Origin: Nitrospirota bacterium
Lineage (GTDB): Bacteria; Nitrospirota; Thermodesulfovibrionia; Thermodesulfovibrionales; Dissulfurispiraceae
Length of the DNA: 64,000 nucleotides
Reading direction: 5' to 3'
NCBI GenBank assembly: GCA_963790025.1
Contig: CAWBMP010000004.1
Coordinates: forward strand, 1,088,001 to 1,152,000
Position 1 is the first letter of the stretch, and each line of letters opens with the position of its first letter. The notes under the pieces were generated by a model, which was not told the origin of the DNA, made no database searches, and was given only the letters and a program-made list of their open reading frames with translations. Below, piece by piece: positions 464 through 62,030 of the stretch. The position numbers were made by a program, and so were the translations under genes.

Positions 464-1066
464 TCATTCATGTTCTGACAGTTGTCCCTTTCTCATTTCT
501 GTAATATGAAACCCGAAAATATTCACATCATTAGGTGCTGTAGCCTCCAAAAAAACCTCATAATAGTACCTCTCTGTCTTCTTGACCTCTCCTGCACCCA
601 GCACACTTCTCTTGCCCTTAATAGTAACTATGTATGCCTTTTCATCGATCTTCCTGATTTCATGTGTTTCAGGAGAAAATAAAAAACTGATATCGCCGGC
701 CCTTAATGAATCGATAACTATTTTCTGCTCCTCATAGAACTTTGATCTGTATACAGGGCTCAGATATCTCGAGGACCGCTTTGTCACAAGATCGGCAGTA
801 TCGGATGTGACGGATGCAATAAGCAAAACAAAATTTTCAGCTATACTCAACACTACATCCTCTATTGCCTCGCCGGGTGTATAAATTCCCGGCTTGGCCC
901 CGGGGACTATATATGCGCGCCTTGGGGTCTGAGATGATTTTACTAGGGCAAATGCCAGGAATACAACAACGACCAGAAGAATGATCGACATCATTTTCCA
1001 CGCTGCTCCCTCGCCGGCATACTTCGCAATCAGAATCCACGATTTTTTTTCAGAACAAAAAGACAT
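464..1066 (-). CDS. Conjugative transfer protein, TraE/DUF2895-like
   Basis: Single N-terminal TM segment and C-terminal PNDVNIFGFHI motif; follows the pilin and TraL-like genes. Confidence 0.65.
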   Translation of the reverse strand: MSFCSEKKSWILIAKYAGEGAAWKMMSIILLVVVVFLAFALVKSSQTPRRAYIVPGAKPGIYTPGEAIEDVVLSIAENFVLLIASVTSDTADLVTKRSSRYLSPVYRSKFYEEQKIVIDSLRAGDISFLFSPETHEIRKIDEKAYIVTIKGKRSVLGAGEVKKTERYYYEVFLEATAPNDVNIFGFHITEMRKGQLSEHE

Positions 1067-3665: not shown

Positions 3666-4418
3666 CTATTTGGTATCGTTCGGCATTACTAGCTGACTGC
3701 ATTTGAGCACCTTGCCGTAATCCGTAAAATAACTGTCGGCTTCTTCTCTCGTCTCGGCACATGCTATTACGGTGCTATGTATAGCGTTCATGCATTCGGC
3801 CTTAAAAAGCTTCAGTCCCATTGCATTAATTTCGGATACGAGCTGCTTAAATATTTTGTTTGAAAGTGTAGTTTTTCTCCTGCACCCGTACATTTTCTCA
3901 AGCTCATTTATTGCGGGTTTGCAATAGTGCTGACGTGTTAAAAGTCTCAGTGTATCCAATACCCTTTTCGATACAGCTTTATCATTGAAGGACTTAATGC
4001 AAACATGAAACTCGTTTTTTTCTCTGCTGACAGACTCCATCTCATATTTTTTCCACGAGACATCCCGGTCGTGCCCTCTCCCGTCGGTTTCTCCGGGCTT
4101 GAAAACAGTCCGCTCGAAATCTATGTCCCGTAATTCTTCATTACAGGCCGGCCAGTTTCTCTGACTCGAAATTTCGCCGCCATCCAGCCCACGGATACTT
4201 TCAAAGCCCTTTTTCAGATACCAGACAAAGACCGTAGTGTCCTTAGTCTTTTGGAATTGATCTCTCTTATATACTTTGGCCTGCAGTCCGGCAAGATATG
4301 CAATTGACATCGCTTCCATTTCGTTGAAATGAGGCCCGAGCCGCTTTCTTGCAATTTTGATTATAATTCCCTTATTCATTTCGAGGAATTGCTCTATTTT
4401 TTTATTTGCGTTGACCAT
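3666..4418 (-). CDS. Hypothetical protein with a degenerate sigma70 region-2-like N-terminus
   Basis: FLEMNKGIIIKIARKR...AYLAGLQA...TTVFVWYLKK loosely matches sigma region 2; overlaps the upstream ParB-like gene. Confidence 0.45.
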   Translation of the reverse strand: MVNANKKIEQFLEMNKGIIIKIARKRLGPHFNEMEAMSIAYLAGLQAKVYKRDQFQKTKDTTVFVWYLKKGFESIRGLDGGEISSQRNWPACNEELRDIDFERTVFKPGETDGRGHDRDVSWKKYEMESVSREKNEFHVCIKSFNDKAVSKRVLDTLRLLTRQHYCKPAINELEKMYGCRRKTTLSNKIFKQLVSEINAMGLKLFKAECMNAIHSTVIACAETREEADSYFTDYGKVLKCSQLVMPNDTK

Positions 4419-5893
4419 AACAGTCCCCCCCAGTTAGACGATTGCTGCATGCCGGACATTGTACCGTAAATTTTTTCCAGCGAAATTATTCTGCTGTTGA
4501 TACCATTGTTGTTGATATCCATGCCATTGATACTGTCTTTGAAATCTTCAAATTTTTCTTTAGTCCTTAGGCTCGTCAGCCCATTATCGTCTCCCCATTC
4601 AAGTACTGACAACAGGGCAAATATGCTATTTACCGTTAATTGTTTGAGAATACCCCCATCTTTTTCCGAAACATCAGGGATTGCCTGAATGTGTTCATTA
4701 ATATGAGTCACCATAAAACTCACATATTTTTCAAATTCCAAACGAAGCCTTTCTGTTGTAAATTCACATTGGTAGTTACAGGCCTCCGTTCTCTTTTTCA
4801 GCAGTTCTTCTTTTTGTTTTAGCTGGTCATTCTTCTTCAAAAGCTCTTTTCTTTGTATTTGCAATTCTTCTTTTGCGGCCTTTAATTCATAGTGTAATCC
4901 CTCCATTTCCATTGCGTAGCTTCCGTCCTTGATGATTCCGGCCACACCGGGGAACTTTTTCGCGAGAAGCGGTAAAACAGTGATTTTGATCTCGTGGTCA
5001 GTTGCGTCGTTAACTTCAAGCAGACGAATTGCATCATAAATTTCATTTATGCTTTTCTGTGCTGATGCAGAGGCCGTCTCACACTCAACTGACGGCTCAG
5101 AGCGTTCCTCCGTATTTTTTCCATCTGATTCATTTTCTTTTGCGTCAAGAGCATTTGAAGATCCCTCTACTGACTTCCATTTATATGTCGGGCCATTATT
5201 ATCAGTGATACTTGCGGCCACTGTTTCATTATCATTTGGGTGCTTTTTTGTGACTTCATTTATCAATCTCCGTGCGGTTGTTCTTGACACCCCTGTTTCG
5301 TTGATGATTTTCTTTACGGACGCTCCCTGGACCAATAAAGTTTTTACTTGTTCTTTTTTACTGACTCTCGCACACACTGCCTTCACTTTTCTTTCTTTTA
5401 CTTCATTTTGAAGCCATCTGTATATGGTGGCTTTACCTGCAATGCCCGTTGCTATAATTTCAGCGCCTGTACAACCATAAATGTTCATTTTTTGTACAGC
5501 GTCTTTTCGTTCTTCGTTGCTCAGTGCCATGCCGTGACTTGCATTCGATTCACATGCCTTCATCAATAAATGTTTTTTAACCTCGTAAGTGTTTAATTCT
5601 GATTCTGAAATTGATATATCGGTACGAATTCTTGCTTTAATCTTCTTCATCTTAATTTCTTTTTGTGCCAGCAACCTGTGGACGCCGTCTTCCAGCGCAA
5701 ATACTTCTTTTCCAGGGTCTCCCGTCTGTACCAGCGAGACTTCAACAGGTGGAATTTCAAAGATAAGGTCTTCCTTTTTTTGAGAATAAATTTCCCTGAA
5801 AAACGCAATTCTTGAGTTATCGATTTTTGTTCTGGGGCTGGTACCGTCAACAATAAGAACTGAATTAACTGAAACCTCTTTTGTGTAAAACAC
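4394..5893 (-). CDS. ParB/Srx N-terminal domain protein with HTH(s) and coiled coil
   Basis: IPPVEV...LEDGVHRLLA...ESNASHGMALS ParB-like motif; HTH-like segments GKATIYRW and TGVSRTTARR; GTG start with GGAGG SD. Confidence 0.75.
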   Translation of the reverse strand: MFYTKEVSVNSVLIVDGTSPRTKIDNSRIAFFREIYSQKKEDLIFEIPPVEVSLVQTGDPGKEVFALEDGVHRLLAQKEIKMKKIKARIRTDISISESELNTYEVKKHLLMKACESNASHGMALSNEERKDAVQKMNIYGCTGAEIIATGIAGKATIYRWLQNEVKERKVKAVCARVSKKEQVKTLLVQGASVKKIINETGVSRTTARRLINEVTKKHPNDNETVAASITDNNGPTYKWKSVEGSSNALDAKENESDGKNTEERSEPSVECETASASAQKSINEIYDAIRLLEVNDATDHEIKITVLPLLAKKFPGVAGIIKDGSYAMEMEGLHYELKAAKEELQIQRKELLKKNDQLKQKEELLKKRTEACNYQCEFTTERLRLEFEKYVSFMVTHINEHIQAIPDVSEKDGGILKQLTVNSIFALLSVLEWGDDNGLTSLRTKEKFEDFKDSINGMDINNNGINSRIISLEKIYGTMSGMQQSSNWGGLLWSTQIKK

Positions 5894-5994: not shown

Positions 5995-6051
5995 AGATAA
6001 CTAACATGTTAGATATTTTACGTGTTTAGAATGACAGTTATGTTAACATAA
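5995..6051. promoter_or_regulatory. Palindromic operator-like sites between the divergent ParB-like and XRE genes
   Basis: AACTAAC-AT-GTTAGAT (5999-6014) and perfect palindrome TTATGTTAACATAA (6038-6051). Confidence 0.55.
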
Positions 6052-6224: not shown

Positions 6225-6890
6225 ATGGCACTTTGGGATTCCATAAAAGAGATCAGACAAAAAGCGCAGCAAACTCAAAAAGAGTTCGCAGATGCAATAG
6301 GTTACACACCCGAGTACATCTCTAATATTGAGCGTTCCCCTGATATAACGCGCAGGATTGCAACGGAAAAGATGATAAAGAAAATTGCAGAAATATATAC
6401 GAAAACTGATGAGGAAAGAATCTCTCTAGAAAGAAAGCTGCTGCTTGAGCGGGCACAGGCAACTGTAAGTCCGGAAGTTGCAATGCATTTTTTAATGGAT
6501 GAGAAGAAACTGTCCACTTATCAGTCAGAGGATGGTATGCCACTCTCATTTATTAAGCGATTAAAAAAAGATTTGTTGAATGTCGAGAACGAAAACACCT
6601 TTTTCAATTCTCTTCAAACAGTTTCAAAAGATGTCGTTGAAGAAAGCCTGAACGGCATGCGCCTCCTCCCTCGAAAAGCGGTTGTAGAAATCGCACGGTT
6701 GTTGGGCCAGTCGATTGAAGAATATTTAATTCTCGCTGATTATATGCCGAGCGAGTTAAAATCGCTCATTATGCACAAAGGGATGAACAATATGTTTCGC
6801 ACTATGAGTGAACTGGACTCAGAAGAACTTGATGCCATGATCGATGTATTTTCGAGTGTTTTGAGAATGCGCAAGAAAAAGAATGAATAG
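6225..6890 (+). CDS. XRE-family HTH transcriptional regulator with a second HTH-like domain
   Basis: IKEIRQKAQQTQKEFADAIGYTPEYISNIER. ATG 6225 is preferred over TTG 6156, whose extension is a poly-T tract. Confidence 0.85.
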   Translation: MALWDSIKEIRQKAQQTQKEFADAIGYTPEYISNIERSPDITRRIATEKMIKKIAEIYTKTDEERISLERKLLLERAQATVSPEVAMHFLMDEKKLSTYQSEDGMPLSFIKRLKKDLLNVENENTFFNSLQTVSKDVVEESLNGMRLLPRKAVVEIARLLGQSIEEYLILADYMPSELKSLIMHKGMNNMFRTMSELDSEELDAMIDVFSSVLRMRKKKNE

Positions 6891-10346: not shown

Positions 10347-11870
10347 ATGAGAGTTTATCTTTTTCCCGTTATATGCCTGCTATCCTTGCTGTCGGCATTC
10401 AATTCATTTGCTGCCGATATCAATGTGGAAGCGCTGTCTGCGACCAACCTGAGTCCCGAGACCCAGGCATGCATAAGTTGTCATTATGAATACACACCCG
10501 GAATTGTACTGGACTGGCTGTCGAGCCGGCATTCGAAGACACTTCCGGCAGACGCAATAAAAAAACCCGAGCTTGAGCGCAGGATTTCCGTGGAAGCGCT
10601 TCCGCCCAGTCTGGCAAACTATTTCGTCGGGTGCTATGAATGCCACACCCTCAACACCAAAAAACACAAAGACAATTTCGAACATATGGGCTTCAGAATA
10701 AACGTGATAGTGAGCCCGAACGATTGCAAGACATGCCACCCAGCCGAAGCAGATCAATTTGCCGGTTCAAAGAAAGCCAATGCCAGAAAAAATCTGATGG
10801 CAAATTCCGTCTACCATACTTTGGTGAGCACTATCACCGGGGTAAAGGAGCTTCGGAACAAAAAGCTTGTGTCAAAGGAACCCTCTGCCGCAACTCTTCA
10901 GGATTCCTGTCTCGGCTGCCACGGAACATCGGTTGAAGTTAAAGGTCTGAAGCAGGTCGCCGTGAAGATGGGAGAAATCACGGTCCCGAACCTCACTAAT
11001 TGGCCCAACCAGGGCGTTGGCAGGGAAAATCCTGATGGGAGCCTCGGCACATGCTCGGCATGCCATGCCAGGCACAGTTTCTCCATTGAGGTGGCCAGGA
11101 CCCCCTATACCTGCTCGCAATGTCATATGGAGCCTGACGTCCCTGCCTGGGATGTATACAAAGAGAGCAAGCACGGGAATATATTTTTTTCCAAATATCG
11201 CGAGTGGGATTTGAACGCAGTACCCTGGGTTGCAGGAAAGGATTTCAAAACACCAACCTGCGCCGTCTGCCATAACAGTCTTATTGCGACACCCAACGGA
11301 AACGTGATTGCCGGACGGACCCATGATTTCGGGTCGCGTTTGTGGGTCAGGATATTCGGCCTGATTTACAGCCATCCGCAGCCTATATCCGGGGATACAA
11401 CAATCATACGAAATAAAGACGGCCTGCCGCTGCCGTCGACGTTCGGAGGAGAGCTTGCGTCCGGGTATCTCATCGACAGGGAGGAGCAGGACAGGAGACA
11501 AAAGGCCATGAAAGCAGTATGCAGCGGCTGTCATAGTTCCGATTGGATAAATGGTCACTTTGCAAAATTCGACAGCACAGTCAAAGAGACTGACGCGATG
11601 GTGCATACGGCAACTGAACTGATGACGAATGCATGGACCAATAAACTTGAAGACCCGTCCAATCCGTTCGATGAGAGTATAGAGAAAATGTGGGTCAGCC
11701 AGTGGCTGTTCTACGCTAATTCCATACGCTATGCCTCTGCCATGACCGGCGCTCCCGATTATACGGCCTTCAAGTTAGGATGGTGGGATATGACAGATAA
11801 TCTCAGGAATATGCAGGATATGATCGATTTTAAAAAACAGCTAAAAAAGAAGGGACCCAAGAAAGAATGA
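10347..11870 (+). CDS. Octaheme cytochrome c, hydroxylamine oxidoreductase (HAO)-like
   Basis: Signal peptide and 8 CxxCH motifs (CISCH, CYECH, CKTCH, CLGCH, CSACH, CSQCH, CAVCH, CSGCH); WPNQGVGRENPDG, ESKHG. Confidence 0.85.
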   Translation: MRVYLFPVICLLSLLSAFNSFAADINVEALSATNLSPETQACISCHYEYTPGIVLDWLSSRHSKTLPADAIKKPELERRISVEALPPSLANYFVGCYECHTLNTKKHKDNFEHMGFRINVIVSPNDCKTCHPAEADQFAGSKKANARKNLMANSVYHTLVSTITGVKELRNKKLVSKEPSAATLQDSCLGCHGTSVEVKGLKQVAVKMGEITVPNLTNWPNQGVGRENPDGSLGTCSACHARHSFSIEVARTPYTCSQCHMEPDVPAWDVYKESKHGNIFFSKYREWDLNAVPWVAGKDFKTPTCAVCHNSLIATPNGNVIAGRTHDFGSRLWVRIFGLIYSHPQPISGDTTIIRNKDGLPLPSTFGGELASGYLIDREEQDRRQKAMKAVCSGCHSSDWINGHFAKFDSTVKETDAMVHTATELMTNAWTNKLEDPSNPFDESIEKMWVSQWLFYANSIRYASAMTGAPDYTAFKLGWWDMTDNLRNMQDMIDFKKQLKKKGPKKE

Positions 11871-12439
11871 AGATAGTGGCATTTTTAGGCAGCCCCCGCG
11901 TTGATGGCAATTCGGATATTATGTTGAGAGAGGCGCTCAAGGCAGTTGAGGGCACAACACATGATACGCGGATTTTCAAACTCAATACTATGAAGATAAA
12001 ACCTTGCCAGAACTGCGGCTGCTGTGATGAAGCGGGCATATGCGTTATAAAGGATGAGATGGAGGAAATAAAAGGGGCGATCCGTGAGGCTGACCGCATT
12101 ATTCTTGCCGCACCTATTTTTTTCTTCGGGCTTAGCGCCCAATCGAAAATCATGATTGACCGCTGCCAATCCTTCTGGTGTGAAAAATACTTGTTAAAAA
12201 AGACCATCCCCCCGGGCCCACAGGGAAGAAAAGGGCTGCTCATGCTTGTCGGGGGCATGAAAAAAGATATAGGCATTCAATGCTCGGAAACCACTGCTAA
12301 GGCTTTTTTCAGGACTATCAGCGTTCCTGAACATGAGACGCTGGCCTTCCTGGGGGTTGACGCAAAAGGTGAGATTCGCAACCACCCTACGGCCCTTACT
12401 GATGCTTTCGAGGCGGTAAAAAGATTAATAGCGTTATAG
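11867..12439 (+). CDS. Iron-sulfur flavoprotein / NADPH-dependent FMN reductase family
   Basis: GSPRVDGNS, CQNCGCC...C, APIFF. Confidence 0.9.
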   Translation: MKIVAFLGSPRVDGNSDIMLREALKAVEGTTHDTRIFKLNTMKIKPCQNCGCCDEAGICVIKDEMEEIKGAIREADRIILAAPIFFFGLSAQSKIMIDRCQSFWCEKYLLKKTIPPGPQGRKGLLMLVGGMKKDIGIQCSETTAKAFFRTISVPEHETLAFLGVDAKGEIRNHPTALTDAFEAVKRLIAL

Positions 12440-12456
12440 CGTTAAAGGAGGAGACC

Positions 12457-12777
12457 ATGTCGGAGTTACCAGGGCAGTATAAGAGCATTGTCAAGAGATT
12501 TAAGAAGTACACCAGGGCTGTTGAAAACCTCGGGAAAGCGGCTAAGGAGGCAGGCCCTATCGATGACAAGACATCTCATTTAATCCAGCTGGCAGCTGCC
12601 GCTGCCATAAGATCAGAGGGCTCCGTCCATTCTCATGCCCGGAGGGCGTTGCAGGCTGGCGCTTCCGTGGATGAATTGCATCATGCAATCATACTGCTGT
12701 CAAGCACTATAGGGTTCCCGACTGTATCCGCAGCATTGAGCTGGGTTGATGATGTGATAAAAAAGGATAGGGGCTGA
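12457..12777 (+). CDS. Carboxymuconolactone decarboxylase (AhpD-like) family protein
   Basis: GPIDDKTSHLIQL...HARRALQAGAS...IGFP. Confidence 0.9.
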   Translation: MSELPGQYKSIVKRFKKYTRAVENLGKAAKEAGPIDDKTSHLIQLAAAAAIRSEGSVHSHARRALQAGASVDELHHAIILLSSTIGFPTVSAALSWVDDVIKKDRG

Positions 12778-13731
12778 TTGCAACTTCCACATCCTGACTA
12801 TATACAATTTTTCCCTACCCTTAATTGCAACCTGCACTGCGGTTTCTGTTTTAACAGGGGGTTGAATACGGACAGCGAAATTACCTCAGACAGTTTTGAG
12901 AGGCTCGCTGGAATAATACTTGATGCCGGGATATGTGAGATAGATATCCTGGGCGGCGAGCCTTCGCTTCATCCTGATATTGTCCGGCTCATCGACATCG
13001 CTGCAACGCTCAAGCTCAGGTTGAACCTGAGCACCAACGGCACAAATGTCGCCATACTGGAGCGCCTGTCTGAAACATATGGCAAGGGCATTGTTAATAT
13101 AGGCATCTCGCTTAACGGCAACCGCGTGACCAAAGAACTCGAAAACTACATTTTCAAGCACCGGCCCCTGCTTAAAACCATCTATAAAAAAACAGGATTG
13201 CCGTCGCAGGCTATCCGTTACCTCGGTTTGACGGAAACAACCTATTATCTGCTATATATGGATGCCGTTAACAAAAGCGATCTTTTGGAGAGCTTGCATT
13301 TCTCTCATTATTATAAACAACTTTCTGATCTGCGATGCAAATACGACAATATAGCCGGAGTTTACTGCGGAGGCTTTATTCCCGATATCGGAAGTCAACC
13401 ATTGTTAAGAGACGTCAGGTGCCCTGCAGGGACCACAAAACTCTCCGTTCTTCCCGATGGTTCGGTCTACCCCTGCTATCTTTTTTTCAGACATAATGAA
13501 TTCAGACTGGGCAATATTTTGACAGATAGATTTGAGAATATCTGGTGCAATCCAACACTAGACTTTTTCAGGACATTCCACGGCAATAAATGTCCCGATA
13601 AAAACTGTGAATTGTTTTCAAAATGCCACGGCGGATGTCCCGCGGTAAGTCTCTTGATCTGCGGCGATATCGCTGCTCCTGACCCGCGGTGTGTCAGGAG
13701 CCCGCTGCCTTATCTAACCGATTACAACTGA
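12778..13731 (+). CDS. Radical SAM protein with SPASM domain
   Basis: CNLHCGFC, GGEP, CPAG...DGSVYPC...C...C.GGC. Confidence 0.9.
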   Translation: MQLPHPDYIQFFPTLNCNLHCGFCFNRGLNTDSEITSDSFERLAGIILDAGICEIDILGGEPSLHPDIVRLIDIAATLKLRLNLSTNGTNVAILERLSETYGKGIVNIGISLNGNRVTKELENYIFKHRPLLKTIYKKTGLPSQAIRYLGLTETTYYLLYMDAVNKSDLLESLHFSHYYKQLSDLRCKYDNIAGVYCGGFIPDIGSQPLLRDVRCPAGTTKLSVLPDGSVYPCYLFFRHNEFRLGNILTDRFENIWCNPTLDFFRTFHGNKCPDKNCELFSKCHGGCPAVSLLICGDIAAPDPRCVRSPLPYLTDYN

Positions 13732-15096
13732 CGGTATAATCCCGATAACAAATACCATCACGACTGTGATAACGAGGGCCAATCCCAGGGTCGGAGAAGG
13801 GCTTATTCCGGCCTCTCCTGTCGGCTCCTTCATATACATGTTCATCACTACCCTCAAGTAGTAATAAGCTGAAATGGAGCTGAATATGACGGCAATAACG
13901 ACAACCCATGTGTATCCGGCGTTTATTGCCGCCATAAATATATTGAATTTTCCAATGAATCCTGCCGTCGGCGGTATGCCCGTAAGCGAGAACATAAAGA
14001 CGAGCATTAACGCCGCGACAATCGGCCGGCTCTTTGCCAGGCCTTCGTAGTCTTTTATTTCTTCTCCCTTGTCCAGCATTATGACAACCGCAAATGCGCC
14101 CATATTCATAAAAGCGTAAATAAGCATGTAAGTCATCATTGCATGCCGTCCAGCCTCGGTTCCGGCGATAACTCCGATGAGCATATAGCCAGCATGAGCG
14201 ATCGACGAATAGGCAAGCATTCTTTTTATATTAGTCTGCGAAATGGCAAGTATGTTCCCTACTGCCATGGTCAGAATTGCAATCCCGATAAGCAAGGGGG
14301 TCCAATCAGCCTGCACGTTCTGGAAAGCCACGTAGAATACCCTCCCTATAACCGCAAAGCCAGCGGCCTTTGGGCCAACAGACATAAAGGCTGTTATGGA
14401 TGTGGGTGCACCCTCATAAACATCGGGGGCCCACATGTGAAATGGCGCAGCGGCTATCTTAAAGGAAAAAGCGACCGCAATAAGCACCATGCTCAGCAGC
14501 AGGGTGGTGGATACTTCGGTCTGCTTCAGTTGTTCTGCTATTTTGTACAGGTCCGTTGTAGTGGTAAGGCCGTAGATGAGTGATATTCCGTAGAGGAGCA
14601 AGGCTGATGAAAATGCCCCGAGAAGAAAATACTTCAGCGCCGCCTCGTTAGACTTGATATCATGACGCTTAATTCCGGCAAGAACATATGTACTCAGCGC
14701 CATAAGCTCAAGGCCAAGATAAAGTACAATAAAGTCCCTTGCCGATGCCATGATCATCATGCCGGTGGTAGCGAACAGAAGAAGGCTGTAATACTCTCCG
14801 TATTCGGCTTCCTGCCGCTGGAGATACTTCAGAGAAATCAGTATGGTCAGCACGAGGTTGATAAGGAAAATAACTTTGAAATACATGCTGTAATTGTCGC
14901 TAATAAACATACCTCCGAATGTCTCCCCGTAGCTGCAGGGCAGAACATAGAAGGTTGCAGCCGCAGCAATAATTCCGACAAGCGCGAGGACACCCTTGTT
15001 CTTGAAAACAAGCTCCATCATAAGGAGCAGCATTGCTGCAACGGACAATATGATTTCCGGCATCAGCGGCGACAGATTAGGAAACGGAATGTTCAT
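13714..15096 (-). CDS. nuoN: NADH-quinone oxidoreductase subunit N
   Basis: EAALKYF, PFHMWAPDVYEGAP, KRMLAYSSIAH. Confidence 0.95.
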   Translation of the reverse strand: MNIPFPNLSPLMPEIILSVAAMLLLMMELVFKNKGVLALVGIIAAAATFYVLPCSYGETFGGMFISDNYSMYFKVIFLINLVLTILISLKYLQRQEAEYGEYYSLLLFATTGMMIMASARDFIVLYLGLELMALSTYVLAGIKRHDIKSNEAALKYFLLGAFSSALLLYGISLIYGLTTTTDLYKIAEQLKQTEVSTTLLLSMVLIAVAFSFKIAAAPFHMWAPDVYEGAPTSITAFMSVGPKAAGFAVIGRVFYVAFQNVQADWTPLLIGIAILTMAVGNILAISQTNIKRMLAYSSIAHAGYMLIGVIAGTEAGRHAMMTYMLIYAFMNMGAFAVVIMLDKGEEIKDYEGLAKSRPIVAALMLVFMFSLTGIPPTAGFIGKFNIFMAAINAGYTWVVVIAVIFSSISAYYYLRVVMNMYMKEPTGEAGISPSPTLGLALVITVVMVFVIGIIPSVVIG

Positions 15097-24022: not shown

Positions 24023-25762
24023 TCAATTTTTCTTTAATTTTACCATCACTTCATTCCCATTCCCGATAACCACAGGCTCCTGCTCCACTCCTAAAAGCCT
24101 GCCAGCCATGTAGGGAACTTTGTCTTTTAAATAATCTTTCATCTCACGGACGGTTATCTTCCCGTCTTTGTTAGCGTCAGCCCCGCCCTGTATCCCCTTG
24201 AGGAAATAATAAGTAAAGAGCGAGTGTCTTTTCTCAGGATACCATGCCGATACCTGGTCCACTGCCCCGCTTGTTATGATAATAGCGTTGGCAGGCCCCC
24301 GGTACTCTTTTTTTACCTTCACGATCGAAGGGCTGATGTCTGTAAGAAGCGTACCCTTTTCATAGTTGCCCGAAAAGCACGAATCCAAAACTATGGTCAT
24401 CTTCTTTGCTGGTATCTTTGAGAGGTTGTCGTAGAAGGTCTGGAGCATGTACCCGTTGTTCCTGATAAATTTGGGGTTGGCATCAACAGGCACGAAATAC
24501 GCCTCAGCGGAATCAAGGTCAGGTGCGCCGTGTCCGACGTAATAGACAAACACCTTTGACTTTCCGGGTTTAACAAACTGGAAGAGCCTGCCTTTGTAGT
24601 CCCGTTCGGAACCGAAAATCTCGCTGAATTTGGCAAAAGTGGCATCTTCCGCATATATGACATTTTTAGGGTCGAAGCCGAAGGTCTGGACTACATATTC
24701 CTTCATTATTCCCGCGTCCCTGTCAGCGTACTCGACATCGGGAGATCCTGAAGCCGAATAATGCTTGTTGCCGATTATGACCGCTACGTCGTAATTGCCT
24801 GCCTTTTCGCCTTCCGGGATATTAATGTCTACGTCCACACTCAGGCCGGTTGCAAGCCGGATGTAAGGCTTTCTTCCAGTCTCTAATCCCTTCACTATTG
24901 TCTCAGCGGTCTTTTTCTGCGGAGCATTCATTAAAAGTGAGAGAGGATAAGACACCCCGAATTGAGTCCTGCTCTCATTGATGTCTATAATGATAGGAAT
25001 ATTCTCTCCGCTTTTGATGCGGTTGTTCGTATAGAACATAAATTTAATGTCCCTGTACTTTCCCGCCTGCAAGTCACCTAGAGCAAAATGTGCATTGCTG
25101 TTTCCGGCAATAAAGACATTCTCTCCCAACTTTACGTCAGCAGTCACATTACCGGCGTCTCCGTAGCCAATGTTCTGGATCCTTACGGTGATCCCAACTA
25201 TCTCCATGGGCTGGACCCTGTAACTCTTGTTCTGGTCCTCTATTCCGATGTCTGCGACAACCAGTTTCGGGGGCTCAAATGCTTTTGTCTTAAATACTAC
25301 CTTTAGCGGAGAGGCATCAAATCCGCTAGATTCTTTGACCACTATATTGAAGCTCAGGTCCCCGGTCGGCAGTTCCTCCGTCGCCCTTAATTTGACCTCT
25401 TTTGACACGCTCCCGCCAGCTGCTATTGTGCCGAATGATATCGTTTTGTCATAAAAAAGACCTTCTGTCCGCTTGTTTGCGCTTATTTCAGCCACGACGT
25501 CGAAGGCATCTCCCTTTCCGTTGTTCTGCACATTGATGATAAGCTTGCCTGTCCCGTTAGCATAAAGTATGTTGTTGCCGGAAGGTTCATAAAACAGCAC
25601 AGATGCTGAAAGGGCCGGAGGTTGAGGGTATACATTCACCTTGATAGTACCCTGTTCTGCAAAAACCGAAGAGGCAGCAAACAAAAAGTAAAAGGTAAGA
25701 AGTAAAAAGTAAAAAGTTACGGCTGCATATCTGATCAGTAAGTTAAATTTCGTTTTAACCAT
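24023..25762 (-). CDS. Secreted caspase-family (peptidase C14) protein with two N-terminal Ig/CARDB-like domains
   Basis: Signal peptide; YYVGHG and LDSCFSG catalytic His/Cys motifs; DANKDGKIT tail. Confidence 0.85.
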   Translation of the reverse strand: MVKTKFNLLIRYAAVTFYFLLLTFYFLFAASSVFAEQGTIKVNVYPQPPALSASVLFYEPSGNNILYANGTGKLIINVQNNGKGDAFDVVAEISANKRTEGLFYDKTISFGTIAAGGSVSKEVKLRATEELPTGDLSFNIVVKESSGFDASPLKVVFKTKAFEPPKLVVADIGIEDQNKSYRVQPMEIVGITVRIQNIGYGDAGNVTADVKLGENVFIAGNSNAHFALGDLQAGKYRDIKFMFYTNNRIKSGENIPIIIDINESRTQFGVSYPLSLLMNAPQKKTAETIVKGLETGRKPYIRLATGLSVDVDINIPEGEKAGNYDVAVIIGNKHYSASGSPDVEYADRDAGIMKEYVVQTFGFDPKNVIYAEDATFAKFSEIFGSERDYKGRLFQFVKPGKSKVFVYYVGHGAPDLDSAEAYFVPVDANPKFIRNNGYMLQTFYDNLSKIPAKKMTIVLDSCFSGNYEKGTLLTDISPSIVKVKKEYRGPANAIIITSGAVDQVSAWYPEKRHSLFTYYFLKGIQGGADANKDGKITVREMKDYLKDKVPYMAGRLLGVEQEPVVIGNGNEVMVKLKKN

Positions 25763-25808: not shown

Positions 25809-26633
25809 TTACTTGACATTCACCACTTCATATGTGAGTATGACATTTTCGGCACAATCTGCAATATCCGAGTATTTCCTGAAAAATTCGGTGACGCTCA
25901 TGATTTCGTATGGGCTGAAGATGTCGATGAAGTCTTTGGGGCAGCTTTCGTCGAGTGCCGCGATAAAAAACGCCTCGTCATCTCTCCTGTGCCCATCGAG
26001 GGTATGCATGATCAGTTCGGTCTTGGTGTCTCTATCAGGAAAGACCAGTCTCCTTTCTCTTGAGATACTGTTCTCTTTGTCATAGCCGTTCGGGAAAACC
26101 ATAACAACCTTGTCGTCTGCCGTCATATTGAAAATTCCGATCTTTGCACTCCCGCCGCTATCGATTTCTACTACAGCCTTGTCACCATTTTTGTAAAGAA
26201 CACTGTTAGTCTTTGCCCGGAGCCCCAAAGGCCTGATACTCGGTTCAGAGACTCTTACATCAGCAATGATTCTGACCCGGTATTCTGGGATTGGCGGCTC
26301 TGACAGGTCTTTTTGATACTGGCCCAGGGGCAGCCATTCGACTTTTTCATGAACAATAAATCCCCTGGAATATGTCTTTATAAATTCGGCGGTAAGGACC
26401 ATATTGGTAACAAGAGAACCGGAGGCTACAACCGTTCCAACGACCTGTTCAATTGCCGAGGCCCTTGCCCTCTGAAGCGCTATCAACTGACATTGTTCGG
26501 CGCTCATTCCCACAATTGCGCATGAGCCTTCGGCCACAACCTTTTCAACTGTACCGGCACAGCAGAGGTTTGACGCCTGGATCATTAAAACCAGTAAAAA
26601 TAAAATTATTGCAGCTATGCGAAACATTTTCAT
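25809..26633 (-). CDS. Exported protein (FlgT-N-like plus DUF4384-like domains)
   Basis: Signal peptide; VVAEG...ALQRARASAIEQVVG; YKNGD...IFNMTADDKVVMVFPN; start inferred from GGGGGAG SD. Confidence 0.55.
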   Translation of the reverse strand: MKMFRIAAIILFLLVLMIQASNLCCAGTVEKVVAEGSCAIVGMSAEQCQLIALQRARASAIEQVVGTVVASGSLVTNMVLTAEFIKTYSRGFIVHEKVEWLPLGQYQKDLSEPPIPEYRVRIIADVRVSEPSIRPLGLRAKTNSVLYKNGDKAVVEIDSGGSAKIGIFNMTADDKVVMVFPNGYDKENSISRERRLVFPDRDTKTELIMHTLDGHRRDDEAFFIAALDESCPKDFIDIFSPYEIMSVTEFFRKYSDIADCAENVILTYEVVNVK

Positions 26634-26737
26634 CGCCGAAAAACTCCCCCCCATCTGTATATAAAGTATATCAGTGCTTTCAAGTATCTGTATATATCCT
26701 TGTTCTTTACCGCAGAAGTGCAGTAAAATCAACGTAT

Positions 26738-57869: not shown

Positions 57870-58604
57870 CTACATTATACAATAGATCAAATACTCTATA
57901 TTCCCCTTCTGCCCGGTAATCGGCGACTGCATCGTCCCGATTATGTTCAGCCCCAGTGCTCCCAATTCTACTTTCACCTGCTCAACAGTGCGCTCGCGTT
58001 TCGCAGTATCTTTAATTACACCACCCTTGTCCACTTCGCCCTTTCCCACCTCGAACTGAGGCTTTATGAGGGCAATCATCTCACCCTCCGGCTGAAGGAA
58101 CTCAAGTACCTTCGGAACGACTTTGACAAGTGATATGAATGACACGTCAATAGTTACAAGGGCAATAGGATCCGGGATTTTTTCCCTTTCAAGGTGACGG
58201 ATATTGGCCCGCTCGATTATGACTATCCTCGGGTCCTGCCGCAGTTTCCACGCAAGCTGGCCGTAGCCGACGTCGATGCAATAAACTTTAGCAACGCCGT
58301 GTTGTAGCAGGCAGTCGGTGAAGCCCCCGGTAGATGCGCCTACATCCATCGCAACCTTGCCGCCCACTGATATATTAAAATTCGCGAGGGCCGCTTCCAA
58401 CTTGAGGCCGCCGCGGCTGACATAAGGGATTTCCCCGCCTCTTACCTCAACTGGCGCATCGGGCGCTACCATCGAACCCGCCTTTGTAACAGGCACACCG
58501 TTGACAAGGACTTTCCCTTCCATGATCAGCGCCCGAGCCCGCTCACGGCTAGACACTATGCCCCTGTCCACAACAATTTTATCAAGACGCTCTTTCATTG
58601 TCAT
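57870..58604 (-). CDS. tlyA: TlyA-family rRNA methyltransferase
   Basis: S4 domain, YVSRGGLKL, GASTGGFTD, KPQFE, GNIEY. Confidence 0.95.
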   Translation of the reverse strand: MTMKERLDKIVVDRGIVSSRERARALIMEGKVLVNGVPVTKAGSMVAPDAPVEVRGGEIPYVSRGGLKLEAALANFNISVGGKVAMDVGASTGGFTDCLLQHGVAKVYCIDVGYGQLAWKLRQDPRIVIIERANIRHLEREKIPDPIALVTIDVSFISLVKVVPKVLEFLQPEGEMIALIKPQFEVGKGEVDKGGVIKDTAKRERTVEQVKVELGALGLNIIGTMQSPITGQKGNIEYLIYCIM

Positions 58605-58685
58605 TTTTCAGAGAAATGTCTGAATAAAGACCTGACCCTCAGAGGTTGTTTTTTATGGATTTTGATATTAGATCAATCATAGCGT

Positions 58686-59522
58686 CTATTTCGTTGGGGT
58701 CGATTTTCCTAGTGCGTATATGCCTGTAAAACCGAGGTGTTCAATAGCTTTCTTTAAGTCAGCAGTAACATAGTTTGCCAGCAGCGCGTATTCATCAATT
58801 GACTGTTGCAGCCCCTGCGCTATTTCAATGATTTTAGAGCGAGATAAAAACAACTCGCCTCTCATTACAGCATCGAATTCATCTTCGGTGATTTGGATCG
58901 ACTCAAGGAATTCCTTCTTTTTGCTTATATCAAGTCTATTGATATCGGTTTTGAGCCGGTCCAGAAATTTTTGAGGCAATTCACCGGTAACCGACTGTGG
59001 ATATGAAGATGCCTTTTTTCTGGGTACGTATCGGAGCAAAGCAAGATACTCGTTGATTGGTTGGTCTAAGGCAGCAGCCAATTTTACAACGTCTCTTCTG
59101 CTGATAATAGCCTTTTCTGCCAGCATGCTAATAGCGTTTTCAATATAACCCTTCTCTGATATTTGCTTATTCTCCGCTATCAGCTTCTGGTAGTCCGATT
59201 TGACCTTCTGTATAAATTCATGCGTTATGCTTCCTCCAGAGGACCCCGGTATAGAGACGTATTGACGAATGCGCGGAGATGTCTCTGCAAGTTCTTTAGC
59301 CAGCAACATACGGTTTTCGAGGGCGATTAGTTCTGCATCCGTTGTGCTGAATTCCTTGGCTATTTTCTCAATCAGGTCAGTTCCAACCCGTCTCCGGGAT
59401 TTTTCAAACGGCATCTCGGCTTGCGAGATATGGTTTGGTGAGCAGCCCAGTCTATCTGCAAATTGTCTCTGGGTGAGGCCGGCTCCCTTCCTTATTTCTT
59501 TTATAATTTCATTAAGAGTCAT
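58686..59522 (-). CDS. XRE-family HTH regulator with duplicated C-terminal HTH-like domain
   Basis: IKEIRKGAGLTQRQFADRLGCSPNHISQAE; two repeats of F...K.D...SR......A..L.Q.I.EY..L..YV. Confidence 0.85.
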   Translation of the reverse strand: MTLNEIIKEIRKGAGLTQRQFADRLGCSPNHISQAEMPFEKSRRRVGTDLIEKIAKEFSTTDAELIALENRMLLAKELAETSPRIRQYVSIPGSSGGSITHEFIQKVKSDYQKLIAENKQISEKGYIENAISMLAEKAIISRRDVVKLAAALDQPINEYLALLRYVPRKKASSYPQSVTGELPQKFLDRLKTDINRLDISKKKEFLESIQITEDEFDAVMRGELFLSRSKIIEIAQGLQQSIDEYALLANYVTADLKKAIEHLGFTGIYALGKSTPTK

Positions 59523-59637
59523 AGGTTATGGCTAATGTTAAGCGACCTTGAAGTCTACATTCCCGTTATAATTTTGCTTTGCCTGCTAATAGTAATTTAT
59601 TGTATTGTTTATAAAAAAATCAACCTTGATTGCGACC

Positions 59638-59700
59638 TTAATCACTACTTTTTAGTGATTAATTTTTCTCTTGACAAACTAACTCTCGGTTAGTTAGTAT
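59638..59700 (+). promoter_or_regulatory. sigma70 promoter with two inverted-repeat operators
   Basis: TTAATCACTA-N5-TAGTGATTAA (59638-59662); TTGACA 59671, AACTAAC-N5-GTTAGTT 59677-59695, TAGTAT 59695-59700. Confidence 0.7.
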
Positions 59701-59744
59701 GTAGGCGAGTGGTTTTAAAACGGAGGTATTCAAAAGGAGGGAAC

Positions 59745-60005
59745 ATGAAAAAACATTTTTCTAATCCGCTTAAGGTTACAATAATGGTAGTTTTGCTGCT
59801 TTTCTTGTTTTCCGCCGGGGCCCCTAGCAATAAATACGCAAAAAATGGCACGGGCATTGTCTACTACTCGCAATACCCGACCGGAGGCACTGAGAAAAAC
59901 AATTCAGGACTTATCGCGTTCGACAGGGGTCATCAATGCCTGAAAGACGATACCGGCACAACTATGTGCTCAAACGTCTTGGGCAGCGGGAACAATAATA
60001 AGTAA
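59745..60005 (+). CDS. Small secreted hypothetical protein (86 aa)
   Basis: AAGGAGG SD, signal peptide ending FSAGA, G/N/T-rich mature part with two Cys. Confidence 0.65.
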   Translation: MKKHFSNPLKVTIMVVLLLFLFSAGAPSNKYAKNGTGIVYYSQYPTGGTEKNNSGLIAFDRGHQCLKDDTGTTMCSNVLGSGNNNK

Positions 60006-60051
60006 TCATAATTAAGAAATACAAAATATCAAAAAAAGAGACCATTCGACG

Positions 60052-60080
60052 AGAAATATGGGGATTGTCCCCATATTTCT
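60052..60080. terminator. 13-bp perfect hairpin between convergent genes (terminator or REP-like)
   Basis: AGAAATATGGGGA-TTG-TCCCCATATTTCT. Confidence 0.6.
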
Positions 60081-60104
60081 TAAAAAGCCAAAGAGCATCC
60101 TAAT

Positions 60105-62030
60105 TTACGATTTCCGGGCAGCTGGGCTGGATATTTTCAGAAAATTCAGTGCAGCTTTGTATATCCCTTCTTCATCGAGACCGTATTGTTTCCTCAGCAA
60201 CGCCTGCGTGCCGTGCTCCACGAATTCATCATCGATCCCGATACGGCATACCTCAACATTGTTCACTCGCCTCAGGTTCAAAAATTCAAGCACAGCAGAG
60301 CCGAAGCCCCCTGCAAGAACATTCTCCTCCACAGTGATTATCCGCTTTGTTCGCTCGCAAAGCGCCATTATCCCCTCCTCGTCCAGAGGCTTAATGAAAC
60401 GGGCATTGACTACGGAAGCATCGACATGATCGTTCTTCAACATTGCTGCTGCTTTCAGGGCCGGATACACTGAATTACCCACCGCAAGAAAGACAATGTC
60501 TTTTCCATCGGCAATGATCTCCGATTTCCCCATTTTCACTGCTGTAGGAAGCACACCCAGAAGGGTATAAGGACTCACCTTTCCCCGTGGATACCTCAGC
60601 ACGGCAGGGCCGTTATGCTTTAAAGCGAGCATGAGCATCCCTCTCATCTCATAACTGTCCTTGGGCGCCATAACTATCAGATTGGGAATATGCCTAAGGA
60701 AAGATATATCAAACAGTCCCTGATGGGTTGCTCCATCCTCTCCCACAATCCCGGCCCGATCAATGGCAAAGATAACCGGCAGGTTCTGGAGACACACGTC
60801 ATGAATAATCTCATCATAGGCCCGCTGAAGGAATGTGGAATATATGGCAACTACCGGCCTGAGTCCCTGGGTGGCGAGACCTGCCGCAAAAGTCGCAGCA
60901 TGAGGCTCTGCTATGCCTACATCGTAGAAACGGTCCGGGAACTTCTCCGCAAAGACAGCCAGTCCCGTCCCTTCCTTCATCGCAGCGCTGATCGCAACGA
61001 CGCGCTCATCCTTATCAGCGATATCAGTAAGGACCCGGCCGAAAAGATCACAAAATGGGATGCAGTCGTCATAAGACGGAACTACACCGACAGCAGCCTT
61101 ATCGGCCTGCGTCACTCCGGTGTCCACTTCAAAGGGACCGACGCCGTGAAATATGCATGGGTCTTCCTCGGAAAATTTGTACCCTTTGCCTTTTTTGGTC
61201 ACTACATGAATCAATACCGGTTCGTTTGTGCCCTTGATACTGCTAAATTTCTCTATAAGCAAAGGAATATCATGCCCGTCTATCGGCCCCAAATAGTTGA
61301 ATCCCAGGTCCTCGAACAGCCCGCCTGGAAGAAAGAACCCTTTCAGGCTCCCTTCCGCCCGCTCTGCTATCCTGGAGACGGTCTCTCCAATCCCGGGAAT
61401 CCCTTTAAGAAGGGCTCTGGTATCTTTTCTGAACTTTTGATAGAACAGACCTGACAATACCTTGCTCAGGTAATTTGAAAGCGCCCCGACGTTCTGGGAT
61501 ATGGACATTTCATTGTCATTAAGGACCACTATGAGATCTTTTTTCATATGTCCGGCCTGGTTAAGTCCCTCAAAGGCGAGTCCCGAGGTCATAGCGCCAT
61601 CCCCGATCACTGCAATCACCTTGAAGGATCCGCCATTCCTGTCCCGTCCTTCTGCAATCCCTAAGGCCGCGGATATGGAAGTGGAACTATGGCCGGTCCC
61701 AAATGCATCATGTTGGCTTTCAGCAATTTTCGGGAACCCTGATATCCCCTTGTATTTCCGAATAGTGGGGAAGTCACGGTACCTGCCGGTCAGGAGCTTG
61801 TGAGAATAAGACTGATGGCCGACATCCCATACTATCTTATCGACCGGAGAATTAAAAACGTAATGAAGCGCAATTGTGAGTTCAACTACTCCGAGGTTGG
61901 ATGCAAGGTGTCCTCCATTAATCGAGACCCTTTCTATAATCAGGGTGCGGAGTTCATCGGCGAGGGTATTAAGTTCTTCCGGTTTCAGCGATTTCATATC
62001 GCGCGGCGATTTTATATTTTCAATAAGCAT
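60105..62030 (-). CDS. dxs: 1-deoxy-D-xylulose-5-phosphate synthase
   Basis: GGHLASNLG, WDVGHQ, GDGA, DRAGIVGEDGATH. Confidence 0.98.
   Translation of the reverse strand: MLIENIKSPRDMKSLKPEELNTLADELRTLIIERVSINGGHLASNLGVVELTIALHYVFNSPVDKIVWDVGHQSYSHKLLTGRYRDFPTIRKYKGISGFPKIAESQHDAFGTGHSSTSISAALGIAEGRDRNGGSFKVIAVIGDGAMTSGLAFEGLNQAGHMKKDLIVVLNDNEMSISQNVGALSNYLSKVLSGLFYQKFRKDTRALLKGIPGIGETVSRIAERAEGSLKGFFLPGGLFEDLGFNYLGPIDGHDIPLLIEKFSSIKGTNEPVLIHVVTKKGKGYKFSEEDPCIFHGVGPFEVDTGVTQADKAAVGVVPSYDDCIPFCDLFGRVLTDIADKDERVVAISAAMKEGTGLAVFAEKFPDRFYDVGIAEPHAATFAAGLATQGLRPVVAIYSTFLQRAYDEIIHDVCLQNLPVIFAIDRAGIVGEDGATHQGLFDISFLRHIPNLIVMAPKDSYEMRGMLMLALKHNGPAVLRYPRGKVSPYTLLGVLPTAVKMGKSEIIADGKDIVFLAVGNSVYPALKAAAMLKNDHVDASVVNARFIKPLDEEGIMALCERTKRIITVEENVLAGGFGSAVLEFLNLRRVNNVEVCRIGIDDEFVEHGTQALLRKQYGLDEEGIYKAALNFLKISSPAARKS

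Follow-up and report, generated by a model that had tools for sequence, protein, structure and literature searches.

A horizontally acquired islet between dxs and tlyA probably holds an orphan immunity-type repressor, a paralog of the regulator of a co-resident conjugative element

The 64,000-nucleotide stretch analyzed here (the window) holds two related regulator genes, one at the right end of a conjugative element and one in a small islet between dxs and tlyA. We consider it reasonably probable that the islet is an orphan immunity-type repressor together with its target gene, a horizontally acquired cassette off a mobile element. The two-gene cassette would have been left by, or split off from, such an element. 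Its repressor would be of the immunity type and belong to an uncharacterized family with the layout XRE helix-turn-helix (HTH), XRE-fold module, short tail. In the islet version the module would have been duplicated and the tail lost to a frameshift. The repressor most likely binds AACTAAC-N5-GTTAGTT as an oligomer and, seated on this palindrome between the -35 and -10 elements, would shut the small gene's divergent promoter. Paralogy, domain folds, insertion, shared palindrome and frame change are what the analysis shows; DNA binding, repression and oligomeric state are properties that we infer for this protein.

The islet spans 1,500 bp (58605..60104), from the start of tlyA (57870..58604, minus strand; FtsJ and S4 domains by Pfam) to the stop of dxs (60105..62030, minus strand; DXP_synthase_N, E 1e-120). 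Its GC content is 41.0%, compared with 47.4% for the genome, 52.1% for tlyA and 49.8% for dxs. In relatives, tlyA lies 10-244 nt downstream of dxs at 18 of 29 loci. The gap is 18-244 nt in six of eight same-genus genomes, and the other two carry another gene, divergent, in between. An AT-richer islet splitting a usually adjacent pair, as described in a first-pass annotation of the window, is thus what the comparison shows. The islet is judged to be foreign, horizontally acquired DNA because it is absent from all eight same-genus genomes, with no vertical conservation in relatives lacking the element, occurs once in the genome and has the composition of the conjugative element's regulatory end. 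No ortholog was found in 60 relatives or among 5.8 billion proteins. No convincing direct or inverted repeats flank the islet, and since the dxs-tlyA spacer differs in sequence throughout between relatives, the exact ends of the insertion cannot be set. An Rfam scan of the islet and three relatives' junctions gave no match in the islet; the only signal, plant miRNA noise below threshold, came from one junction (L021). One DNA run and no RNA run were found to contain the stretch. The DNA run (X1) is a metagenome from freshwater sediment, possibly the source sample. Its short identical contigs cover parts of the islet; one crosses the tlyA/islet boundary (58487-58637), and none was shown over the frameshift site described below.

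The islet regulator (58686..59522, minus strand) is an open frame of 278 aa, in which HTH_3, BLASTP and AF2 delineate an XRE HTH and, after it, two XRE-fold modules. HTH_3 (PF01381) matches residues 7-59 (E 1.5e-9; 38.2 bits vs a gathering cut-off of 23). The AF2 model has a pLDDT of 81, with 96-98 in the HTH part. Residues 1-65 (59328..59522, minus strand) form a canonical XRE helix-turn-helix by Pfam and VIA-align. This N-domain has the five-helix lambda-repressor-like fold, with Z of 8-10 against HigA, ImmR, SinR and DdrO; VIA-align places it on the ImmR DNA-binding domain (7t8i_A) with Z 8.3 and rmsd 1.9 over 64 residues at 30% identity. Module C1 (residues 95-173; 59004..59240, minus strand; hmmsearch E 1.9e-16) is the extra, fast-diverged copy. 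It matches the family module profile by hhalign (probability 98.6%, E 8e-16), and its branch in a module tree measures 2.96 vs a median of 0.91. Module C2 (residues 178-262; 58737..58991, minus strand; hmmsearch E 8.3e-29) is family-typical, with an XRE/lambda-repressor-like fold. Folded alone, C2 has a pLDDT of 85, and VIA-align sets it on the DdrO HTH (6rnz_A) with Z 8.1 and rmsd 2.5 over 66 residues. All but one of the Foldseek matches listed for C2 alone are lambda/XRE-type DNA-binding domains, the exception being an enzyme chain aligned over only 60 residues. The N-domain and C2 also match each other by hhalign, in helix register (E 6e-5). Because the duplicated C-terminal module itself has the XRE/lambda-repressor fold, the islet regulator is a series of three XRE-fold domains. 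In the module tree 25 of 41 forks are open, and it shows neither sisterhood of C1 and C2 nor their orthology to the two modules of P0037. A homodimer prediction for the 278-aa protein scored 0.29 against a mark of 0.42 and speaks neither way.

The paralogous regulator of the element (6225..6890, plus strand; 221 aa; ORF, BLASTP and Pfam) lies 51.8 kb away. BLASTP aligns residues 1-167 of the islet protein with 1-175 of this product (33% identity, E 1e-23), a span from the HTH through the LENRMLL/LERKLLL linker to the first module. A second, colinear alignment pairs residues 169-269 with 94-191 (37%, E 1e-16) and corresponds to the second module. Pfam detects the N-terminal HTH_3 alone, so the similarity extends past the generic XRE HTH. 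The first-pass annotation had drawn this relationship, with the module twice in the islet copy and once in the element's, and both points are borne out. By these alignments the islet regulator is a true paralog of the element's terminal regulator. Its identity to that resident protein is 33-37%, vs up to 41% to unrelated family members; being no closer to the resident regulator than to others, it is therefore not its recent duplicate. The proposed tie to the element thus stands as family paralogy and shared palindrome half-sites, not as recent duplication.

The family was defined in this analysis by the pattern HTH, 'MP..F..RLK.D ... LSR..V..LA..L.QP..EYL.LA.Y.P' module, tail. It has 125 representatives at E<=1e-3 and 34 at E<=1e-10, typically of 200-250 aa with one module, and the islet regulator is similar to this tandem XRE-fold family colinearly and over its full length. 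A Peptidase_M78 (ImmA/IrrE) gene adjoins members at five of nine assessable loci (three by Pfam, E 2e-10 to 3e-21; two by eye from the HExxH motif). Other members lie between integrases (G011) or in phage-like surroundings (L058), and within the genus homologs occur in element-holding genomes alone, at a distance of about 5 kb from a TraE ortholog. Neither tblastn against 50,697 phage and 72,556 plasmid records nor a scan of IMG/VR viral contigs turned up a member. A related-locus search with a 10-row alignment returned only four loci. A 279-aa XRE protein of an island in G008 was considered as a relative and rejected as unrelated (E 0.3).

The element takes in window positions 1 to about 7,400 and sequence upstream. 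Its type IV secretion marker is TraE (464..1066, minus strand; Pfam TraE, E 5e-8). The F-type mating-pair-formation set comprises TraE, TraK_C, TrbI/TraB, TraV, TraC_F_IV with P-loop_TraG, TraG_N, TraU and SLT, and a type IV coupling protein is encoded at L063:18429-19994 (T4SS-DNA_transf, E 9e-32). No Pfam relaxase or integrase was found among ORFs of at least 110-130 aa over about 100 kb, where several large ORFs have no family. The earlier label of integrative and conjugative element (ICE) holds for the secretion system and coupling protein, while a relaxase and an integrase were not found in this range. A ParB-like gene of 499 aa (4394..5893, minus strand) is divergent from the element's regulator and heads the leftward array. 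This pairing is kept in four genomes (G001, G003, G006 and G018), and a promoter-like site at 5978-5951 matches 11 of 12 consensus positions. Proteins 79-84% identical to the 6225-6890 product fall in 15 clusters. TraE orthologs (84-86% identity) are found only in the three same-genus genomes that also hold an element-type regulator; the two occur together in four of nine genus genomes, the present one counted, a patchy distribution. Three same-genus genomes have the element and lack the islet, so the islet is dispensable for the element. An M78 gene is found neither in the islet nor beside 6225-6890, the sole genomic match (C4:132607) being about 1 Mb off.

Each regulator gene has a candidate operator upstream. 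That of the islet is AACTAAC tctcg GTTAGTT (N5; 59677..59695), with arms that match perfectly (7/7). It sits between the -35 and -10 elements of a sigma-70-like promoter of the small gene, TTGACA-18 nt-TAGTAT (59671..59700, plus strand; 10 of 12 consensus matches). The element's counterpart, AACTAAC at GTTAGAT (N2; 5999..6014), is conserved as GATAACTAA(C/T)-aa-GTTAGTTATC in G006, G001 and G003, where the flanks diverge. AACTAAC-N(0-8)-GTTAG, at 7+5-base stringency, occurs at just two sites in the genome, upstream of the two regulators. The palindrome pattern was seen twice in 64 kb vs 0.29 expected, with two of 100 shuffles reaching two; in 3.45 Mb it has five sites, and only the two regulator-proximal ones carry the full AACTAAC arm. 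The statistic is conditional, since it was the islet palindrome that prompted the search in the element; by our own arithmetic it comes to about 5e-4 to 1.5e-3 for a 331-nt region. No CTAAC/GTTAG palindrome was found upstream of other family members, so the sites are assigned to their proteins by position and analogy. Inverted-repeat scanning located a second perfect palindrome in the islet, TTAATCACTA-N5-TAGTGATTAA (59638..59662). A scan of the 222-nt intergenic region gave no promoter for the regulator itself.

These shared half-sites bear on active cross-regulation, in which the islet repressor acts on the element operator, or the reverse, or the two proteins form mixed oligomers. The first-pass annotation had suggested such a link; from sequence, cross-talk is plausible, and we hold active cross-regulation to be unlikely, if a serious contender. 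The 7-mer half-sites AACTAAC are identical and occur genome-wide at these two places only, and both palindromes fall in the spacer of a promoter-like site with a -35 starting TTGA. In our own reading of the alignment, the recognition-helix changes look conservative (T/S, E/N, Y/H, N/Q), and the homologous C modules could support mixed oligomers. There is also a precedent in ImmR of ICEBs1, for which one article (PMC5812530) describes immunity in trans against a second copy via repression of the incomer's int. However, a spacer of 5 vs 2 nt would shift the half-sites by roughly 100 degrees and 10 Å, so cross-binding is not a given. Also against it, the proteins share only 33-37% identity, the islet copy resembles unrelated members of the family just as much, its tail lies outside the reading frame, and the element lives without the islet in three same-genus genomes. 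The same half-sites at another spacing point to a common ancestry of DNA recognition in the two systems, which may still cross-talk or may not. If cross-regulation were true, the islet would damp or sense transfer, giving immunity to related incomers or tying the small protein to the state of the element.

The putative target in our preferred reading, an orphan repressor with its target gene, is a gene of 86 aa (59745..60005, plus strand; ORF and Shine-Dalgarno). The protein has two Cys and a signal-peptide-like N-terminus, basic then hydrophobic, as first described. The Shine-Dalgarno AAGGAGG ends 4 nt before the ATG. A perfect 13-bp hairpin (60052..60080; inverted-repeat scan) lies between the convergent dxs and small gene, with a T-run on the dxs strand and an A-run on the opposite strand, and would serve as a two-way terminator. 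Among 5.8 billion proteins the small protein matched itself only; distant homologs were found in G008 (pairwise E 1e-9) and G241 (profile E 7e-11). Its Shine-Dalgarno, promoter and signal-like N-terminus, the hairpin downstream of it and the distant homologs make the gene look real. The mature protein would have about 54 aa and probably a disulfide bond. For the small protein, ESM Atlas gave a best score of 0.79, too low to be useful. None of nine other family loci with the upstream side read showed a divergent gene for a small secreted protein; therefore, the pairing is not a family trait, contrary to the idea of a regulator/secreted-peptide module. The suggested role in signaling or exclusion found no support beyond one weak lead, a distant homolog whose neighbor, in a different genome, is a TraT gene. 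A search of the present genome gave no TraT, and the small protein itself has no Pfam match, TraT (PF05818) included, and no lipobox Cys, unlike surface-exclusion proteins of the TraT type.

The 3' end of the regulator gene raises a further alternative. The amphipathic C-terminal tail that is a family feature is not in frame in the islet regulator. Translation, tblastn and a tail HMM place its remnant out of frame past the stop (58639..58719, minus strand; the tail itself at 58642-58716), with the frame change at the A-run 58704-58707. Four of 10 family queries gave colinear tblastn HSPs in the other frame (E 0.002-0.018), and over 2,314 six-frame peptides the tail HMM ranked the remnant second (E 5.1e-5; the next, 0.27). 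Either the A-run carries a real frameshift or the assembly is wrong there. Programmed -1 slippage on GGA-AAA-T might in principle yield full-length protein; we set this aside as highly improbable, as the site has no tandem slippery heptamer. The islet could be the last fragment of a former dxs-tlyA element, with a regulator becoming a pseudogene and no present function. The split between the conserved tail and the body fits such decay, as do the high divergence of C1, an islet without partner peptidase, integrase or transfer gene by ORFs and Pfam, and a spacer that receives dispersed repeats in relatives. We nevertheless rate this as improbable. The regulator keeps 272 intact codons and a confidently folded HTH, the palindrome arms are perfect, and the small gene retains its predicted promoter, Shine-Dalgarno and terminator. 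The out-of-frame tail is stop-free for 26 codons, so that either the shift happened very recently or the assembly is in error.

More speculative, and in our view quite doubtful, is a role for the islet as a listening post. The three-XRE repressor would keep the element's half-sites, with the inserted module shifting their spacing by 3 bp. It would compete or mix with the element's repressor and so couple presence or activation of the element to release of the small protein, which might serve as a cell-to-cell signal or in exclusion. Peptide signaling of the RRNPP kind, in which the secreted product is re-imported and bound by the regulator's C modules, is very improbable: an HTH regulator does adjoin a small exported protein, and the fold matches include the N-terminal HTHs of PrgX, PlcR and ElrR, but these matches extend no further than the HTH, the C modules have an XRE fold and Pfam detects no TPR, the predicted mature product is not a short linear peptide, and no such partner occurs at the nine other family loci.

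Conjugative-element repressors set the timing of gene movement between bacteria, and beyond a few model elements such repressor families are mostly unnamed. The locus defines an uncharacterized repressor architecture of tandem XRE-fold domains, widespread in Nitrospirota and further environmental phyla and often accompanied by an ImmA/IrrE peptidase. One genome with two paralogs, whose candidate operators have common half-sites and unlike spacing and one of which has an extra domain, amounts to a natural experiment. It opens the question of domain insertions retuning operator geometry and so insulating or connecting co-resident mobile elements. Practical consequences are modest: the host is an environmental anaerobe, and the islet is possibly decaying.

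Among known systems, ImmR/ImmA of ICEBs1 and DdrO/IrrE of Deinococcus resemble the islet in the HTH, which superposes on those of ImmR and DdrO. As with ImmR/ImmA, the element's regulator gene is located at one edge of its conjugative element and diverges from the transfer-side operon, and an M78 gene is often beside members of the islet regulator's family. Unlike in ImmR/ImmA, the M78 gene is absent from the islet and from this genome's element. Similarity of ImmR and DdrO to the islet regulator is undetectable in sequence outside the HTH. In the C-terminal part of the islet family, one or two further XRE-fold modules precede a tail, an arrangement that we take to be different from the C-terminal domain of ImmR and DdrO. 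The RRNPP pairs (PlcR-PapR, PrgX/cCF10, Rap-Phr) likewise place a small exported product next to an HTH regulator. In contrast to them, the islet regulator has no TPR sensor, and the small gene is divergent rather than downstream, with a much larger, Cys-containing product. Orphan or cryptic-prophage repressors of the cI type, known from superinfection immunity, differ in that the resident related element here is conjugative, not phage. They consist of a lone repressor and an operator-bearing promoter apart from any complete element, and the islet is alike in this.

The islet (58605-60104) separates dxs (60105-62030, minus strand) from tlyA (57870-58604, minus strand), leaving 1,500 bp between the dxs stop and the tlyA start. 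Two divergent genes fill this space, an XRE-family regulator (58686-59522, minus strand, 278 aa) and a small gene (59745-60005, plus strand, 86 aa). The small gene has a promoter-like site, TTGACA-18-TAGTAT (59671-59700, plus strand, 10/12 matches), and an AAGGAGG that ends 4 nt before its ATG. Downstream of it, facing the dxs end, lies a perfect 13-bp hairpin (60052-60080). Because this hairpin and the inserted genes cut tlyA off from dxs, we infer that transcription of tlyA must now start inside the islet. The first-pass annotation described the islet as AT-rich and as splitting a usually adjacent gene pair. Both points hold: the islet has a GC content of 41.0%, the whole genome 47.4% and the genes on either side 50-52%, and the pair is contiguous in most relatives. 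Of the tlyA loci of 29 relatives, 8 of them same-genus, 18 have the dxs C-terminal part upstream of tlyA at a distance of 10-244 nt. Within the genus this is so in six of the eight (gaps of 18-244 nt), and the remaining two have another gene, divergently oriented, at this position. The islet was found in none of the 29.

The genome has one copy of the islet DNA, and no repeats bounding the islet's ends were found. In 60 relatives nothing matches the 278-aa protein over its full length, the best hits (E 1e-15) being shorter family members, and among 5.8 billion clustered proteins it matches only itself. The dxs-tlyA spacer varies within the genus. Spacers of three relatives (L021, L023 and L022, from G007, G005 and G001) carry inserts of 180-240 nt that look like small non-autonomous mobile elements, the G001 insert being a long inverted repeat. 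These recur in the genome under study as dispersed or tandem repeats, matching at 80-88% identity over ~120 nt (C2:677677, C2:705335, C4:678998 and C4:712303-712508), so the site tolerates insertions. Foreign origin is the best-supported reading of the islet cassette.

The islet regulator had been called a paralog of the regulator of the resident conjugative element (6225-6890, plus strand, 221 aa), with its C-terminal module present twice. BLASTP bears this out beyond the generic HTH. Residues 1-167 align with element residues 1-175 (33% identity, E 1e-23) and residues 169-269 with 94-191 (37% identity, E 1e-16), both alignments reaching the module, and a module profile matches at 95-173 (module 1, E 2e-16) and 178-262 (module 2, E 8e-29). 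These are the only two family members in the genome. An exhaustive phmmer search returned 125 representatives at E<=1e-3, of which 34 reach E<=1e-10; they are mostly of 200-250 aa with one module, and one, P0037 (301 aa), has two as well. Members named in databases, from Dissulfurispiraceae, Alphaproteobacteria, Syntrophorhabdaceae, Nitrospiraceae and Bacteroidota, are called only helix-turn-helix regulators. Plasmid, phage and IMG/VR collections yielded no member. A module tree was poorly resolved, with islet module 1 on a branch of 2.96 against a median of 0.91. Three long proteins, P0034 (1002 aa), P0035 (703 aa) and P0062 (647 aa), each give 8-9 separate matches to the query's XRE HTH and are apparently tandem HTH-domain arrays.

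Pfam assigns no domain after the HTH of the islet regulator. Its AlphaFold model (pLDDT 81) has three helical domains. VIA-align superposed residues 1-75 on the DNA-binding domain of ImmR (7t8i_A; Z 8.3, rmsd 1.9 over 64 residues, 30% identity), with SinR, DdrO and HigA as further matches. For residues 184-250 it gave the HTH domain of DdrO (6rnz_A; Z 8.1, rmsd 2.5, 66/66 residues) as well as those of PrgX and ElrR. When module 2 was modelled alone (pLDDT 85), the Foldseek matches listed were lambda cI, ClgR, HigA, DdrO, P22 c2 and similar DNA-binding domains, with one exception, an enzyme chain (MPnS) matched over 60 residues. Their probabilities are ~0.9-1.0 and TM scores <=0.74, yet E-values are only 0.02-0.2. 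Profile-profile comparison aligned the family's N-domain with the module helix by helix (probability 65%, E 6e-5) and islet module 1 with the module profile (probability 98.6%). From the fold matches and profile comparisons, the family layout is HTH, XRE-fold module and tail, with the module twice in the islet protein. The family is uncharacterised and its module absent from Pfam. Among regulators of mobile elements that module is portable. In a relative, a 349-aa protein (L067:2777-3826, G001:C64) combines the module and tail with another XRE N-terminus and a middle domain, and its gene adjoins excisionase-like and replication-like genes.

In alignment, the islet protein stops where its relatives run on into a conserved tail. 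This tail is encoded in a different frame just beyond the regulator stop (58639-58719, minus strand, ending KIDPNEIDAMIDLISKSIKNNL*). The out-of-frame peptide is colinear with the tails of the element copy, P0005, P0032 and P0036, with HSPs from four of ten queries (E 0.002-0.018). A tail profile of 39 sequences, searched against 2,314 six-frame peptides of the window, ranked it second (E 5e-5) behind the element copy; the next had E 0.27. The two frames meet at an A-run (58704-58707), and in the sole sequencing run holding the region no contig crosses that site. Either one base was gained or lost very recently, since the remnant runs 26 codons without a stop, or the assembly is in error there.

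The small gene's product looks like the exported type proposed earlier, with a basic then hydrophobic N-terminus and two Cys. A search of 5.8 billion proteins gave no match to it. A distant relative in G008, a secreted protein of 107 aa that is rich in Cys (32% over 75 residues, pairwise E 1e-9), has a non-specific endonuclease on one side and a TraT lipoprotein (E 9e-52) on the other, and methylases, helicases and restriction genes abound in the island around it. No TraT was found in the genome under study. Another, of 143 aa in G241, lies beside a gene judged transposase-like by eye. An apparent link to mobile DNA is the only pattern for the small protein. The G008 island itself (L056/L057, G008:C2:347001-387000, ~35 kb) holds many DNA-metabolism and defence-related genes and looks like a mobile element rich in defence/anti-defence genes. 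It encodes an NAD-dependent ligase, NDK-NADAR and a second NADAR, thymidylate synthase and kinase, C5 and N6/N4 methylases, Endonuclease_NS, TraT, a type ISP restriction enzyme, GIY-YIG and several helicases.

The element had been called an ICE. Its conjugative character stands: TraE lies at 464-1066, TraK, TraB/TrbI and TraV in the next 20 kb, TraC (VirB4-type), TraG_N, TraU, an SLT lysozyme and VirB11-like ATPases 40-60 kb away, and ~61 kb to the left of where the window begins comes the coupling protein (T4SS-DNA_transf, E 9e-32). The strict term is less secure: Pfam recognised no relaxase or integrase among ORFs of at least 110-130 aa over ~100 kb. Close TraE orthologs (84-86%) occur within the genus only in G001, G003 and G006, on the same contigs as element-type regulator orthologs and ~5 kb from them. 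This co-occurrence in only three relatives marks the element as accessory and justifies the name conjugative element. A ParB-like gene (4394-5893, 499 aa), divergent from the regulator, heads a long minus-strand array, and sensory and secretin genes are scattered through the element's array. Loci L047, L048 and L049 (C4:1028001-1088000) interleave conjugative genes with three secretin genes, several T2SSE ATPases, one T2SSF gene, an MCP/CheR/HDOD set, a GGDEF protein, a PAS histidine kinase with LuxR-type response regulators, and toxin-antitoxin genes (PIN, AbiEii), a mix unusual for an F-type system.

Several other genes of this genome were noted. About 12 kb from the coupling-protein gene, amid unrelated genes, a lone 1,103-aa ORF (L063:3360-6671; C4:1011360-1014671) carries the full set of five Rpb1/beta-prime domains of RNA polymerase, and none of its annotated neighbours was recognised as rpoB. 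A molybdopterin oxidoreductase is apparently split into a 217-aa Fe4S4-domain ORF (L063:11060-11713) and an 830-aa catalytic ORF (11762-14254), which could reflect a frameshift or an in-frame TGA read as selenocysteine. A lipoprotein-like ORF of 98 aa (7788-8084, plus strand), bearing a CxxCH haem motif, lies just beyond the regulator of the element and is kept beside the element in G001 (L007). The nuo operon is followed directly downstream by a caspase-domain (Peptidase_C14) and CARDB protein (24023-25762, minus strand) and then a DUF4384 protein (25809-26732, minus strand).

Both regulators have a related palindrome nearby. The islet's candidate operator, AACTAAC-tctcg-GTTAGTT (59677-59695), fills the -35/-10 spacer of the small gene's promoter, and the islet regulator probably represses the divergent small gene through it. 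The element's candidate, AACTAAC-at-GTTAGAT (5999-6014), lies upstream of its regulator, inside a weaker plus-strand promoter-like site (TTGAGA-16-TATTTT, 9/12 matches) and has, 20 nt away, the -35 of the minus-strand site with the best score (11/12), which faces the ParB-like gene. CTAAC-N(0-8)-GTTAG occurs twice in the window, exactly at the two regulators (0.29 expected; 2 of 100 shuffles reach two), and five times in the 3.45-Mb genome, with the full 7-base left arm only at these two sites. The element palindrome is kept as GATAACTAA(C/T)-aa-GTTAGTTATC in G006, G001 and G003 while its flanks diverge. Six other members (G018, G011, G057, L058, L060 and L061) have other palindromes or none, so the half-site is not constant across the family. 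A perfect 10-bp inverted repeat, TTAATCACTA-N5-TAGTGATTAA (59638-59662), is found 9 nt before the -35 of the small gene; having no counterpart in the element's intergenic region, it may serve another factor.

The shared half-sites tie the islet cassette to the resident element's lineage, and they make cross-talk between the two testable. The recognition helices differ at four positions, by changes that look conservative. Active cross-regulation, as first suggested, is nevertheless a minority reading and rather unlikely, because the palindromes differ in spacing by 3 bp, the regulators share low identity, the islet regulator's tail is damaged and the element does without the islet in three relatives. 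Local repression of the small gene remains the reading we prefer.

Nine other family loci were assessable for neighbours. None has a divergent small secreted-protein gene, and the proposed regulator/secreted-peptide pairing therefore fails as a family trait. A Peptidase_M78 (ImmA/IrrE) gene adjoins the regulator in five, by Pfam in G006, G011 and G057 (E 2e-10 to 3e-21) and by eye from the HExxH motif only in G003 and L061. There is none at the element of the genome under study, whose single M78 match is ~1 Mb away. The G011 copy is flanked by two tyrosine recombinases, and the L058 copy adjoins a small cro-like XRE gene in phage-like surroundings. ImmR/ImmA (PMC5812530) is the familiar case of the mobile-element regulator role to which we liken this family's. 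Service to mobile elements in an ImmR/ImmA-like role is the best-supported reading of these neighbourhoods, and the islet regulator is a new architecture on an already known theme, the immunity-type XRE repressor.
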